Below, in pieces: positions 492-4,911 of a stretch of 22,668 bases of DNA. The position numbers and the translations under genes are program-made. The DNA lies in IMG/VR virus record IMGVR_UViG_2778260991_000002, positions 1 through 22,668 of that record, one strand, 5' to 3'. The first letter of the stretch is position 1. The number at the start of each line of letters is the position of its first letter. The stretch is from a virus (lineage: Duplodnaviria > Heunggongvirae > Uroviricota > Caudoviricetes). Below the pieces are notes generated by a model, which was not told the origin of the DNA, searched no databases, and saw nothing but the letters and a program-made list of their open reading frames with translations.

Positions 492-520
492 TAATACGCC
501 CCTGCATGGGGCGTATTATT
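490..520. terminator. Strong hairpin between convergent Q and KAP NTPase genes; candidate bidirectional intrinsic terminator
   Basis: Perfect inverted repeat AATACGCCCC (493-502) / GGGGCGTATT (508-517) with loop TGCAT, extendable to about 13 bp (490-520). Overlaps the Q stop (489-491) and the minus-strand KAP stop (520-522). Flanked by moderately U-rich sequence on both strands. Confidence 0.55.
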
Positions 521-1851
521 TACTGGATGAATGACATTTGATTAATATATTTTATCAATAACTCTCTGGGGGTAGTACTCCAAAAATTTATGTGTTCATA
601 ATCAGTATAAACATTTGTGAATTTTTTAAGTTCTTCATCACTTTTAGGGGCAAATCGCTCATTAAGAGTAATACTGTCTTTAATTATTCCGAAGAATACA
701 ATGGATATTTCAGGGATTTGCGATCTTCTCTCATAAGAATAAGGTATTTCTTTTATGTTAAGCAGGTCTGCTAAATAAGATATAGATTCAGCGGTAATTT
801 CTTGTTTTAGTTTTTCCTTGTTACCAAAGCAATGTATGAAGGCAGCTACGACAAAGATCATATTTATTAAAGGATTACTGCTTTTGTTCTCATCGTCGTT
901 TAACAGTTGAAAAATGTTAAGATTGCGTGAAAATGTTTGTGTTTCACGTAATGATAAGTTGGTTCGTTGAATTAAATCACGGATAAAGTAACCTGATAAT
1001 CTATTGATTTTATTCAATAACCTTGTTTTTTCTACAAGATAATCCCAATATATAACAGAGGCTTTACATACGTTGTGACCATTTATCAAACATGTATCTG
1101 GAAGCGTGATGGTATATTTTATAAACTTGTCAAGATATTTTTGTGAGTTAATGCTATAACCATAAATATGATTTATAGATGCTTTTAATTGTTCTGTGTT
1201 TGTAACTAAAATAAAAAAGACATTATTGATGTCAAAAATGTGTTTTATTGTTTCAATAACATTTGTTGAAAAACTCGGCTTACATCGGTCTAATTCATCA
1301 ATTATAATTACGATTTTTTGATTTTTTGATATACTTTCGATGCAGGATTTAAGTGAATTTATGTTTTTCTCTGAGTCCATATGGTCTTCAAGCAAATTTT
1401 CAATAGTCCCATCTATTGCTGCATTGCTTGCTTTCTTCATCGCATCTTGGAATTCTTCGGCAACTTCACTAGCCTCCTGTCGTAAAAACCAACCTGCACC
1501 AGCTTTTAGTACCGTTTTTAAACCAAAGCGAATTGCAGGAAGAGATCTCTTAATGAAGTGTTGTTTTTCTTCCTCAGGCAAAATGCTGGCAATTGCAGAG
1601 GTTATGAGAAGTAATGGAGATTCTGCATGATCCCCTTTAAAGGCATCAATATAAACAACTTTAGATTCAGTTTCTTGCTCAATAATGAGATTTTTCAGTT
1701 TGATACTAAATTCTGTTTTCCCTGTTCCCCATGCGCCGTCTATTACCAGTGGTGAAATGTCTGCCTCTGGTTTTAGCAACTTGATGATATTTTCAGCGAT
1801 GTTTCTTCGTTGGAACTCGTCACGTTCAGTGAAAGATAGTGTATCTAACAT
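520..1851 (-). CDS. KAP-family P-loop NTPase (PifA-like), 443 aa; accessory gene, candidate phage-exclusion/defence protein
   Basis: Walker A with the KAP-typical tryptophan, GAWGTGKT, near the N-terminus, and Walker B IVIIIDELDRC (the DELDRC KAP hallmark). Local GC is much lower than the flanks (about 25% in a sampled 60-nt stretch at 1141-1200, against roughly 55-60% in the structural genes). Opposite strand to all phage late genes. Confidence 0.75.
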   Translation of the reverse strand: MLDTLSFTERDEFQRRNIAENIIKLLKPEADISPLVIDGAWGTGKTEFSIKLKNLIIEQETESKVVYIDAFKGDHAESPLLLITSAIASILPEEEKQHFIKRSLPAIRFGLKTVLKAGAGWFLRQEASEVAEEFQDAMKKASNAAIDGTIENLLEDHMDSEKNINSLKSCIESISKNQKIVIIIDELDRCKPSFSTNVIETIKHIFDINNVFFILVTNTEQLKASINHIYGYSINSQKYLDKFIKYTITLPDTCLINGHNVCKASVIYWDYLVEKTRLLNKINRLSGYFIRDLIQRTNLSLRETQTFSRNLNIFQLLNDDENKSSNPLINMIFVVAAFIHCFGNKEKLKQEITAESISYLADLLNIKEIPYSYERRSQIPEISIVFFGIIKDSITLNERFAPKSDEELKKFTNVYTDYEHINFWSTTPRELLIKYINQMSFIQ

Positions 1852-2465: not shown

Positions 2466-3518
2466 ATGAAAAATACTGTAAAAATAAACAGTGTTGATTT
2501 AATCAACGCTGATTGCCTGCATTTTATTCAGTCCCTGCCTGATGACTCCATTGATCTGATTGTTACCGATCCACCGTACTTCAAAGTGAAGCCCAACGGC
2601 TGGGACAATCAGTGGAAAGGGGACGAAGATTACCTTAAGTGGCTGGACCACTGTCTGGCCCAGTTCTGGCGGGTGTTGAAACCTGCCGGAAGCCTTTACC
2701 TGTTCTGTGGACATCGCCTGGCATCTGATATCGAGATCATGATGCGTGAACGTTTCAATGTGCTTAACCATATCATCTGGGCGAAGCCGTCCGGACGTTG
2801 GAATGGGTGTAATAAAGAAAGTTTGCGCGCATATTTTCCTGCCACAGAGCGCGTTCTGTTTGCTGAACATTACCAGGGGCCATATCGCGGCAAAAGTGAC
2901 GGCTATGCGGCAAAAGAAAGGGAACTCAAACAGCACATAATGGCACCGCTGATATCGTATTTCAGGGATGCTCGTGCCGAACTGGGTATAACGGCAAAAC
3001 AGATTGCCGAAGCCACAGGTAAGAAAAATATGGTTTCCCACTGGTTTGGTGCCAGTCAGTGGCAGTTGCCGAATGAGGCTGACTACCGGAAGTTGCAGGC
3101 ACTTTTTTCCCGTATAGCGGCAGAGAAGTTTCAGAAACAACAACTGGAACAACCACACCACCAGCTGGTGGCATCTTATGATTCACTGAATCGCAAATAT
3201 TCTGAATTGCTGGATGAGTTTAAATCTCTCCGGCGCTATTTCTCCGTATCAGTCTCCGTGCCTTATACCGATGTCTGGATGCATAAACCCGTTCAGTTCT
3301 ACCCGGGTAAACATCCGTGTGAGAAACCGGCGGATATGCTCAGGCAAATAATCAACGCCAGTAGTCGACCAGGTGATCTGGTTGCTGATTTCTTTATGGG
3401 ATCCGGTTCCACAATAAAAGCAGCAATGGCGCTGGGGCGTCGGGCGTTAGGTGTTGAGCTTGAGTCAGAGCGGTTTAACCAGACGGTGAAAGAGGTAAGT
3501 GAACTGGTGGGGAAATAA
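2466..3518 (+). CDS. DNA methyltransferase, beta-class amino-methyltransferase (N6-adenine or N4-cytosine; DPPY suggests N6-adenine), 350 aa, no cognate endonuclease seen
   Basis: Motif IV IVTDPPYF near the N-terminus and AdoMet-binding motif I FFMGSGST near the C-terminus, which is the beta-class order. The central region between them is the presumptive target-recognition domain. No restriction endonuclease gene adjacent. Confidence 0.85.
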   Translation: MKNTVKINSVDLINADCLHFIQSLPDDSIDLIVTDPPYFKVKPNGWDNQWKGDEDYLKWLDHCLAQFWRVLKPAGSLYLFCGHRLASDIEIMMRERFNVLNHIIWAKPSGRWNGCNKESLRAYFPATERVLFAEHYQGPYRGKSDGYAAKERELKQHIMAPLISYFRDARAELGITAKQIAEATGKKNMVSHWFGASQWQLPNEADYRKLQALFSRIAAEKFQKQQLEQPHHQLVASYDSLNRKYSELLDEFKSLRRYFSVSVSVPYTDVWMHKPVQFYPGKHPCEKPADMLRQIINASSRPGDLVADFFMGSGSTIKAAMALGRRALGVELESERFNQTVKEVSELVGK

Positions 3519-3568
3519 TTCTGGTGTCAGAGCTTTTATTCGCTAATTTTTTCACTGGGAGGCTATTT

Positions 3569-3826
3569 ATGCATTCACACCATCATCAAATATCTATGAT
3601 CCCACTTACCATGAGTTCACCCATTAAAGGTTTTTCACTGTATGTAGAAAGCGAAGACATGGCTGTCGCTATAGCTGAGCTTGAAAATGCCTTATCACAG
3701 CTCAAGAATGGAAATAAGGCATTCAAAGAAAGTGGCACGCTGGTTGGTAACGTCAGAGCAAGTTATTGCTATCCTTACCGTCCTCATTGTGCCGCGAAAG
3801 GTCTTTATTGGGATGAAGGGGATTAA
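3569..3826 (+). CDS. Hypothetical protein, 85 aa
   Basis: ORF 3524-3826; start at ATG 3569 preferred because of strong SD GGGAGG (3557-3562) 6 nt upstream. Stop TAA 3824-3826 overlaps the stop of the convergent gene. No recognisable motif. Confidence 0.5.
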   Translation: MHSHHHQISMIPLTMSSPIKGFSLYVESEDMAVAIAELENALSQLKNGNKAFKESGTLVGNVRASYCYPYRPHCAAKGLYWDEGD

Positions 3827-4347
3827 GCAAGGACTTGTTCACCGATAGTTACTGGTAACGGACAAATGTATTCCCAGACTGGATCAGGGTTAAAAGTTTT
3901 TCCTGACCAGTAAAGTTCCATTCTGTAGGTGAATTCCAATACCGATGTATCATTTCTTAATAATGACATATCTCCGCGATGATAACTATCTGTTTGTATT
4001 ATGAAAATTTTATCTGATGGTTTTCCGTCTGTAAGTCGAAAATGTTTAGCCTCCTCCAGGTTACCCCAGGCGAAGAGTGACGTATAGCGAGAAGGTTTTT
4101 GCGGGCAAACTCCTCTTCGGTAAAACTCAAGTCCCCAGTCGATGAGTTCGTTTTTATTATAAATTTTTGCCGCATTATTAATGAGGTATCCTTCGCCTTG
4201 TGGAGCAAGCCCGCGCGGAAAAAGTTTGTCTACCAGAGATGACATTTCAACAGGAGTTATATCGGAGAATTGCTTTGGTGTAACGATATCGCCTGTTGAG
4301 TATATTCCTCGGCGATCAACCATAAATAGTTTCATTAATTTCTCCAT
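3823..4347 (-). CDS. Hypothetical protein, 174 aa, cytoplasmic (no signal peptide), moderately AT-rich accessory gene
   Basis: Uninterrupted 174-codon ORF on the minus strand; sampled GC about 37%. Convergent with the 3569-3826 gene and sharing the 4-nt TTAA stop overlap (3823-3826). No family recognised by eye. Confidence 0.6.
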   Translation of the reverse strand: MEKLMKLFMVDRRGIYSTGDIVTPKQFSDITPVEMSSLVDKLFPRGLAPQGEGYLINNAAKIYNKNELIDWGLEFYRRGVCPQKPSRYTSLFAWGNLEEAKHFRLTDGKPSDKIFIIQTDSYHRGDMSLLRNDTSVLEFTYRMELYWSGKTFNPDPVWEYICPLPVTIGEQVLA

Positions 4348-4575
4348 TGATAGTTGTTACTTTTGGCGATGTAACGATATCAAACGAGAATTTATATCGC
4401 CAGATGCTTAATCTGACACTTCATCTGACCCTAGTATGTGCCGTTTTTTTTATTTAAGGCCGCTGACAGGTCCATTTAGTGCGACGCCTTTCCCCGTTTC
4501 CGCTCCTGGAATATTCGGGGATTTTTTATTCCCTCAATTTGCACCCGCGATATGTGCGAGGTGAGAGATGACGAA

Positions 4576-4911
4576 ATGCCTCATAACCCAAATACCTGGC
4601 CGGACTGGCTGGAGTTGTTCCAGAGCTGGTGGCGTGGAGACACACCACTGGGCGCAGTGATTATGTCGATCGTTATGGCTGGTTTACGTATTGCCTATTT
4701 TGGCGGCGGTGGCGGCTGGAAACGAAAAACACTCGAAATTTTGCTCTGTGGTGCTCTGACGCTGACATTTGCATCCGCTCTTGAGTATGTCGGATGGCCT
4801 AAATCGCTTTCTGTTGCCATTGGTGGTGGCGTGGGGCTGATCGGTGTCGATGCTATTCGTGGGGCTGCAATGCGAGTAATCGGTAACAAATTTGGTAGCT
4901 CGAAGGAGTAA
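4576..4911 (+). CDS. Class I holin (three predicted TM segments), not lambda S-like in sequence
   Basis: ORF 4552-4911. ATG at 4576 preferred (SD GAGGTGAGAG at 4558-4567); upstream in-frame ATG at 4552 could give a longer antiholin-like form. Three hydrophobic stretches (LGAVIMSIVMAGLRIAYF, TLEILLCGALTLTFASALEYVGW, LSVAIGGGVGLIGVDAI) and a charged C-terminus. Immediately precedes endolysin R. Confidence 0.7.
   Translation: MPHNPNTWPDWLELFQSWWRGDTPLGAVIMSIVMAGLRIAYFGGGGGWKRKTLEILLCGALTLTFASALEYVGWPKSLSVAIGGGVGLIGVDAIRGAAMRVIGNKFGSSKE

Follow-up and report, generated by a model that had tools for sequence, protein, structure and literature searches.

The analysis concerned a pair of convergent genes in the 22,668-nucleotide stretch of the IMG/VR record IMGVR_UViG_2778260991_000002, a virus of the Caudoviricetes. 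This whole stretch is called the window here. The window was a lambdoid prophage with the gene order antiterminator Q (123-491), KAP NTPase, methyltransferase, the pair, holin S, lysozyme open reading frame (ORF), Rz, Nu1 and gpA terminase. The lysozyme ORF was called glycoside hydrolase family 24 in a near-identical record. The pair consisted of a small gene on the plus strand and a large gene on the minus strand, the latter with a predicted ADP-ribosyltransferase (ART) fold. Handles such as L002 denote compared stretches of DNA, and those such as P0073 denote compared proteins. The pair was defined by the following features.

3569-3826, plus strand: small partner gene of 85 aa (MHSHHHQ...KGLYWDEGD), from its translation, its homologues and the ratio of nonsynonymous to synonymous substitution rates (dN/dS)
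3557-3562, plus strand: Shine-Dalgarno (SD) sequence GGGAGG, with SD-like purine runs at the equivalent position in other cassettes
3823-3826, both strands: shared stop tetranucleotide TTAA, replaced by CTAA in L004, L005 and L012 and by TTAG in L010
3823-4335, minus strand: DUF2441/BC2332-like ART-fold gene of 170 aa, from PHROG 5663, the 2AUA profile match, the AlphaFold2 model and dN/dS

A sequence-only reading of this locus had described a convergent, moderately AT-rich pair with overlapping stop codons and a strong SD before the small gene. All of this was borne out by the sequence and the ORF list. The stop codon of the small gene (TAA, 3824-3826) overlapped that of the large gene, which appeared as TTA at 3823-3825 on the plus strand. 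GGGAGG was located 6 nt before ATG 3569, and the cassette had a GC content of 40.7%, below the 53.1% of the window and the 48-52% of its flanking genes. The palindrome TTAA, to which that reading had drawn attention, was present in the window, but it was not kept in relatives, and the conserved feature was a 4-nt overlap of the form YTAR. The 174-aa length proposed for the minus-strand ORF needed a similar correction. The ORF was real, but its start was most likely 4335 rather than 4347, giving 170 aa, with ATG 4347 as an alternative. GGAG was present at 4345-4342, 6 nt upstream of 4335. The homologues of the large protein were all 170 aa long and started with M[KE]LFMVD, and the PGAP annotation also gave 170 aa.

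Three starts of the small gene were used in RefSeq (100, 85 and 76 aa, corresponding to 3524, 3569 and 3596 in the window; seen in L001 and L002). Judging by the alignments, ATG 3569 is the true start, because all homologues began with MxxHHHQ and the similarity between cassettes began only about 22 nt upstream of this ATG. The 100-aa form from GTG 3524 and the 76-aa form from an internal ATG were rejected, as the homologue alignment supported the 85-aa form. In Klebsiella phage KP12, the small gene (L029, 4404-4784) was left without RefSeq annotation.

Both genes were under purifying selection. In comparisons between cassettes, in which synonymous sites were near saturation, dN/dS was 0.11-0.27 (small gene) and 0.06-0.20 (large gene). 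Since only 4 nt overlapped here, the conservation of the small ORF was not explained by constraint from the opposite strand. The identical 4-nt overlap was kept in four lineages with 71-100% protein identity and a synonymous divergence (dS) of about 1-2. Six more distant lineages kept the convergence with a 77-107-nt overlap or a 4-8-nt gap. These results indicated that the convergent arrangement is more than chance.

The linkage of the two families was scanned with hidden Markov models of both proteins in 63 stretches (the window and L001-L062, several of which overlapped on one contig). The large proteins were clustered at 90% identity, which gave 16 clusters. The small partner was found in 10 of the 16 and was convergent in every one of the 10, the 3' ends ranging from a 107-nt overlap to an 8-nt gap. 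The partner-bearing clusters, with their identity to the window protein, were as follows.

4 clusters, 71-100% identity: 4-nt overlap (TTAA, CTAA or TTAG)
4 clusters, 34-37% identity: 77-107-nt overlap
2 clusters, about 37% identity: 4-8-nt gap

The pair spanned lambdoid and Mu-like prophages in Escherichia, Salmonella, Providencia, Arsenophonus, Izhakiella, Klebsiella and Enterobacter. Searches with the small protein led to DUF2441-linked loci with one exception. In Mu-like prophages of E. coli, Salmonella and Arsenophonus, its relatives P0185, P0189 and P0192 were each encoded convergently to a DUF2441 gene. The distant-clade pair was also carried by Klebsiella 'phage KP12' and an Enterobacter plasmid, and the genes overlapped by 77-80 nt in the distant-clade pairs (Mu-like, KP12 and Enterobacter plasmid). 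The insertion site varied by lineage (methylase-holin, RusA-methylase, Q-holin, Dam-holin and after Mor). Among 50,697 phage isolate records, the large protein was found in 8 and the small protein in 1, and neither was found in the Escherichia, Shigella and Salmonella phage records of that collection. Taken together, the data suggested that the pair is a single functional unit with the ART-fold protein at its centre, for which we estimate a probability of about 0.85.

Several variants of the arrangement were observed. In IMGVR_UViG_2657244961_000008 (L014, 5526-6859; also in L043), an insertion with a 402-aa transposase, which we take to be IS10-like, was located exactly at the stop-stop junction. 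The two genes were about 1.3 kb apart with both ORFs intact, which made this a natural uncoupled allele. In Izhakiella australiensis (L012, 1352-1864), the large gene had an in-frame stop and was a pseudogene, and the adjoining small gene was intact. In clade C (L023-L028, L007 and L008), the large gene was antisense between small-terminase-like and Rz/lysozyme-like ORFs, as judged by eye on the longer contigs. L008, L023 and L024 had a different small convergent ORF (containing DIYQITLTTQTGETFTGKMSRRQPELVNGFV) 60-175 nt downstream.

The pair was carried by a mobile unit, and its extent and flanks were as follows.

3547-4442, both strands: mobile cassette core, about 93-95% identical to a copy in a different prophage type
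2466-3518, plus strand: flanking phage N6/N4 DNA methyltransferase (Pfam PF01555, E 1.9e-42)
4552-4911, plus strand: flanking lambda-family holin S (Pfam PF05106, E 3.3e-27)

The pair is a rare, mobile, AT-rich accessory cassette, because 7 of 5,426 complete E. coli genomes carried it, whereas the methylase-holin site was empty in about 1,600, because it also occurred in a second prophage type, where the 0.9-kb unit preceded a class II holin, and because of its low GC content. Among the matches listed, the methylase and holin flanks of empty sites were joined over about 420 bp. In the empty site L003, the methylase stop was followed by a 77-nt spacer bearing a terminator hairpin and then by the holin. 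Relative to the empty site, the inserted segment was approximately 3527-4520. As in lambdoid morons, the insert was sporadic and deviant in composition, and the large gene was antisense to the operon. With regard to a promoter and terminator of its own, there was a conserved block upstream without a consensus promoter, and after the stop there was no terminator, only a weak hairpin inside the small gene.

The sequence-only reading had recognised no motif in either protein. This statement was superseded for the large protein. Left unassigned in that reading, the large protein was placed in the DUF2441/BC2332-like ART fold by structure prediction with AlphaFold2 and by a profile match to 2AUA. 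It matched PHROG 5663, a family of unknown function, with E 8e-58, and direct scans of Pfam (E up to 10), NCBIfam and PADLOC gave no match. A profile search of 1.84 billion representatives yielded 1,054 relatives. When AlphaFold2 was run with 12 close sequences, the predicted local distance difference test score (pLDDT) was 56, and an alignment of 88 sequences gave 97.5. The profile match to the structure of BC2332 (PDB 2AUA) had E 5.8e-14 at 16% identity, and homology to this founding structure was supported by both profile and fold. The model contained the split beta-sheet core of the ART fold. AcrF11 and phage/effector ARTs were among its structural neighbours, and the fold matches in BFVD were uncharacterised proteins only. 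BC2332-like proteins constitute SCOP d.166.1.6, a family in the ADP-ribosylation superfamily, and DUF2441 (PF10386) is placed in the ART clan by Pfam. Relatives at 41-44% identity scored near the 25-bit cut-off of PF10386 (P0011, 25.1 bits; P0012, 23.4 bits), and the window protein scored below it. A precomputed PF10386 assignment was listed for 170-aa homologues, and more distant homologues were named 'DUF2441 domain-containing protein' by RefSeq.

D7, E70, R73, R83, R100, D122, Y142, W143 and E155 of the large protein were invariant across clades at 29-80% identity to the window protein, and the pattern VR...PSR...YW...E was common to the large protein and BC2332. This conservation points to a working active site. 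R73, S82-R83 and E155, the last at the start of a strand, could constitute an R-S-E-like catalytic set. The protein was soluble by its grand average of hydropathy (GRAVY) of -0.36. Two homologues were found in other settings. In P0073 (572 aa), an N-terminal CHAT caspase-like protease (E 1.7e-28) was fused to a C-terminal DUF2441 domain, which suggests that the domain acts as an effector in other conflict systems. In Gordonia phage JuJu, the homologue gp39 (L030, 3232-4480, genes 37-41) was located between a RelE/RelB pair and a serine integrase, which is the usual place for lysogen-expressed accessory genes. Both settings are typical of conflict effectors.

The small protein belonged to an orphan family. 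No relative was found in Pfam, PHROG, NCBIfam, PADLOC or PDB, and Pfam at E up to 10 gave no helix-turn-helix (HTH), ribbon-helix-helix, AbrB, Dmd, HicB or other domain. There were 17 close homologues, down to 58% identity, and 12 more distant ones at about 30% from a profile search. The core motif of the family was [FY][ST]L.V-x5-EAI..L..AL..L-x8-16-[MLV][IV]G.V.A, with a conserved layout in which a strand is followed by an amphipathic helix (EAI..L..AL..L) and then by another strand (MIGNV.A). Two motifs of the close clade, HHH and H-C, were not conserved in the distant one. A 58%-identical homologue was encoded on a 1.8-kb metagenomic phage contig (L009, 828-1103; JGI metagenome 3300024346) right after RecT in a co-directional operon, and no DUF2441 gene was present on this contig. 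The homologue might represent an orphan antidote in another phage.

The regulatory elements around the pair were as follows.

4356-4403, minus strand: conserved block upstream of the large gene, CTGGCG-N15-TGATAT-CGTTACATCGCCAAAAGTAAC, in the window, L002, L004, L005, L010 and L012
3686-3723, minus strand: 10-bp perfect inverted repeat AATGCCTTAT / ATAAGGCATT followed by UUUUC, inside the small gene
4504-4530, plus strand: terminator-like hairpin and T-run just before the holin, the first plus-strand candidate downstream of the small gene

The absence of an intergenic terminator, as the sequence-only reading had claimed, was confirmed. There was no room between the stops, no lineage with the pair had a gap of more than 8 nt, and a consensus scan gave no terminator inside 3569-4347. 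Equivalents of the plus-strand terminator were found just beyond the upstream block of the large gene in L002, L010 and L012, so that the small-gene transcript would be fully antisense to the large gene. Hairpins similar to that at 3686-3723 were present on the minus strand in the L002, L010 and L012 types and not in L004 or L005. This hairpin is possibly a weak terminator for the large-gene mRNA.

The shared cassette extended about 107 nt upstream of the large gene, compared with about 22 nt upstream of the small gene. The block at 4356-4403 contained the inverted repeats TGGCGAT/ATCGCCA (4364-4370 / 4396-4402) and GTTAC/GTAAC, and is presumed to be a promoter or operator. A DNA-level element was more likely than RNA here, because the sequence upstream of the large gene showed no covariation in RNAalifold; a structured RNA leader was dropped for the same reason. 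A sigma-70 candidate, GTGTCA-17-TATAAA (4419-4391), was discarded because it was specific to the window, with no conservation across the other cassettes. The 12-nt direct repeat TGTAACGATATC (4279-4290 and 4370-4381) was likewise not conserved elsewhere and was set aside as due to chance or codon use.

In all lambdoid loci, the flanking phage operon had the direction of the small gene and ran counter to the large one. Since the pair was located between Q and the lysis genes, Q-dependent late transcription must cross the large gene in antisense. In the Mu-like prophages, the large gene was co-directional with the holin and late genes. The layout fits opposed expression of the two genes, with three caveats: the hairpin at 3686-3723, the Mu-like orientation, and a lysogen-active upstream promoter, for example one serving the methylase, by which lysogens would also express the small gene. 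Mutually exclusive expression of the pair, as first put forward from the letters of this stretch, is kept as a hypothesis only.

Based on the above results, we propose that the pair might be an accessory module of temperate phages that is complete in itself. Its 170-aa protein would be an enzyme of the ART superfamily, using NAD+ to modify a macromolecule or destroying NAD+. In a conflict system, for instance prophage-encoded defence, superinfection exclusion or addiction, it would be the effector, with the 85-aa protein as its dedicated partner, most likely a stoichiometric neutraliser (an antidote or immunity protein). As the genes lie tail to tail without room for a terminator, each transcript would run antisense into the other gene. 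In the window prophage, the effector gene would have a promoter of its own and be transcribed in opposition to the late operon. Q-dependent late transcription would then cross the effector gene in antisense and produce the partner, and the effector would thereby be off during the phage's own lytic growth.

The effector part of this proposal was based on the fold and family, the enzyme-like conservation, the CHAT fusion, the JuJu neighbourhood, the linkage and the moron-like status of the cassette. The last of these followed from its rare presence, its low GC content and the KAP NTPase, a defence candidate, in the same Q-to-holin interval. The regulatory part was based on the upstream block, found only for the large gene, the antisense orientation in lambdoid loci and the plus-strand terminators beyond the large gene. 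The antidote idea was based on L009, where the small gene stood by itself, as expected of an orphan antidote.

Several points weighed against this proposal. The consensus scan gave no sigma-70 promoter upstream of the large gene. A canonical H-Y-E or R-S-E triad could not be assigned in the large protein, and a literature search found no function reported for any protein of the DUF2441 family. PADLOC 2.0 (E up to 0.1) gave no match for either protein, and Pfam and PDB searches gave no DNA-binding or known antitoxin domain for the small one. Known ART toxin-antidote pairs are co-directional, and a neutraliser without a conserved promoter of its own would be an atypical antitoxin. The large protein was without a partner in seven clusters, six of clade C (41-45% identity) and that of Gordonia phage JuJu, which implied that the enzyme can exist without the small protein. 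Finally, the orientation in the Mu-like prophages meant that shut-off by late antisense transcription does not generalise. Considering both sides, we place a toxin/antidote-type defence or addiction module somewhat short of an even chance.

A more elaborate form of this module, in which the partner acts at two levels, is doubtful. The small protein would neutralise the DUF2441 ART, and its mRNA would silence the effector gene as an antisense RNA. If true, this would combine type I with type II toxin-antitoxin logic and be a new class of prophage conflict module. It would amount to an ART-based defence that is armed in the lysogen and disarmed for the phage's own lytic cycle, and phages with the small gene alone, as in L009, would be natural escapers.

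The most basic alternative was that two unrelated morons abut in an insertion hot spot, the stop overlap being a by-product of compaction. Accessory genes are known to accumulate in the Q-to-holin interval, the KAP NTPase lies there too, and the large gene is without a partner in some clades. Convergent overlaps of 4 nt also arise easily, as TAA and TAG share TA with their complements. However, convergent co-occurrence was seen in all partner-bearing clusters, at about 30% identity for the small protein and 34-37% for the large one, on unrelated phage backbones and at different insertion sites, and both genes moved as one cassette. Chance juxtaposition of two independent morons is very unlikely on these comparisons, and the co-occurrence data came close to refuting it. 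In another alternative, the ART-fold protein might serve phage offence by modifying a host or defence component (cf. T4 Alt/Mod and the anti-CRISPR AcrIF11), with the small protein as a regulator, cofactor or chaperone. This would agree with AcrF11 and the phage/effector ARTs among the structural neighbours and with a 2022 survey in which phage ARTs were argued to commonly hijack host functions (PMC9503650). The large gene of the Mu-like prophages could be expressed along with the holin and late genes, and the pair adjoins DNA methyltransferases, which are anti-restriction devices, in several contexts. We nevertheless regard an offensive role as unlikely. In every lambdoid locus, the large gene runs against the lytic operon behind a conserved upstream block of its own, which is the usual layout of a lysogen-expressed moron, the family is almost absent from phage isolates, and the partner has no HTH, unlike the Aca regulators.

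The protein may also have kept the ART fold and be no NAD+-using enzyme but, for example, a binder of nucleotides or RNA, in which case both proteins would make up a non-toxic complex that serves lysogeny in a regulatory or structural capacity. No classical ART triad was identified, R8 after strand 1 was not conserved (S in other clades), and the isoelectric points of both proteins were unremarkable at about 6.1-6.2, which would agree with this view. The residues E70, R73, R83, R100, D122, Y142, W143 and E155 argued in the opposite direction, as they were invariant down to 29% identity and common to BC2332. The published active-site template of BC2332 matches that of diphtheria toxin, and the CHAT fusion puts the domain in the position of an effector. 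A role without catalysis was considered improbable, to about the same degree as the offensive one.

The pair was compared with known systems. BC2332 of Bacillus cereus is longer, with 224 residues in the deposited chain. It has no known function or partner, and the match to it gives the fold, not the activity. The window pair resembled DarT-DarG, RES-Xre (ParT-ParS and MbcT-MbcA) and the Rhs pairs TreX-TriX and Tre1-Tri1 in its components. These are co-directional operons, whereas the window genes converged and overlapped at their 3' ends. As antidotes, the known systems use macrodomains, HTH proteins or defined immunity families, in contrast to the orphan family of the window partner. Unlike in type II toxin-antitoxin operons, the genes were convergent in every lineage, and the partner was without the DNA-binding domain of type II antitoxins (no Pfam domain at E up to 10 and no PDB relative). 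In the type I loci txpA/RatA and bsrG/SR4 of B. subtilis, convergent transcripts with overlapping 3' ends are produced from prophages. The window pair was similar to these in its prophage location, convergence and 3' overlap, and the 77-107-nt overlap of the Mu-like clade was of similar length. However, type I systems consist of a small membrane peptide and a non-coding RNA, and the window pair consisted of two conserved proteins. The large protein was a soluble 170-aa protein with a predicted enzyme fold, the opposite strand coded for a conserved protein, and an Rfam search gave no match.

Lambdoid prophages carry morons and defence genes in the Q-to-lysis interval, such as stx in Stx phages, and prophage self-immunity is represented by BstA/aba. 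The cassette was similar to such morons as an AT-rich sporadic insert, opposed to the operon and next to a defence candidate. A classical moron has its own terminator, whereas in the window cassette a second conserved gene occupied that position. A p0068-family ART has been predicted to pair with a Dmd antitoxin in entero-phages (Iyer et al. 2022, PMC9503650). The likeness is that an ART toxin encoded by a phage is predicted to have a small protein as its antidote. It was rejected as the same system, as neither window protein was found in the Escherichia, Shigella and Salmonella phage isolates of the collection searched and the partner had no Dmd match (Pfam, E up to 10). Very probably, the two are distinct systems.

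The DUF2441/BC2332 family is large (about 1,050 representatives at 50% clustering) and has had a solved structure since 2005, yet no function is known for it. The cassette provides a genetic handle on this family, with a dedicated partner, a mobile unit of about 0.9 kb and an E. coli prophage context. It is a conserved, mobile and uncharacterised cassette of an ART-fold protein and its partner with an unusual architecture. By its predicted function, it would fall among ART-based conflict modules and would not be categorically new. If the pair is a defence or addiction module, the known repertoire gains both an ART family and an uncommon layout, convergent and terminator-less. This layout would tend to escape operon-based and co-directional neighbourhood searches. 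If the proposed regulation is true, the locus would be a model for the reprogramming of a lysogen-expressed gene by antisense transcription of the late operon.

Observations were also made on the neighbouring genes. A DNA methyltransferase adjoined the pair in three unrelated contexts, namely the window, the Arsenophonus-type prophages and the Mu-like prophages, and none adjoined it in the L002 and L010 types. The PF01555 enzyme was upstream in the window and downstream in the Arsenophonus-type prophages (L005/L011), and a Dam-type PF02086 enzyme was beside the large gene in the Mu-like prophages (L031/L032/L029/L064). This adjacency may reflect a shared hot spot or a functional link. The KAP-family P-loop NTPase (443 aa, 520-1851, minus strand, 32.6% GC) was antisense between Q and the methylase. 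It matched the PADLOC defence candidate PDC-S20 with E 3.7e-177, and PifA/QatA weakly. A GC-rich hairpin was present at about 492-520, between the stops of Q and the KAP NTPase. Related prophages held other cargo at the KAP position, namely ORF6N proteins and DUF6731, and the Q-to-lysis interval was therefore a hot spot for variable cargo.

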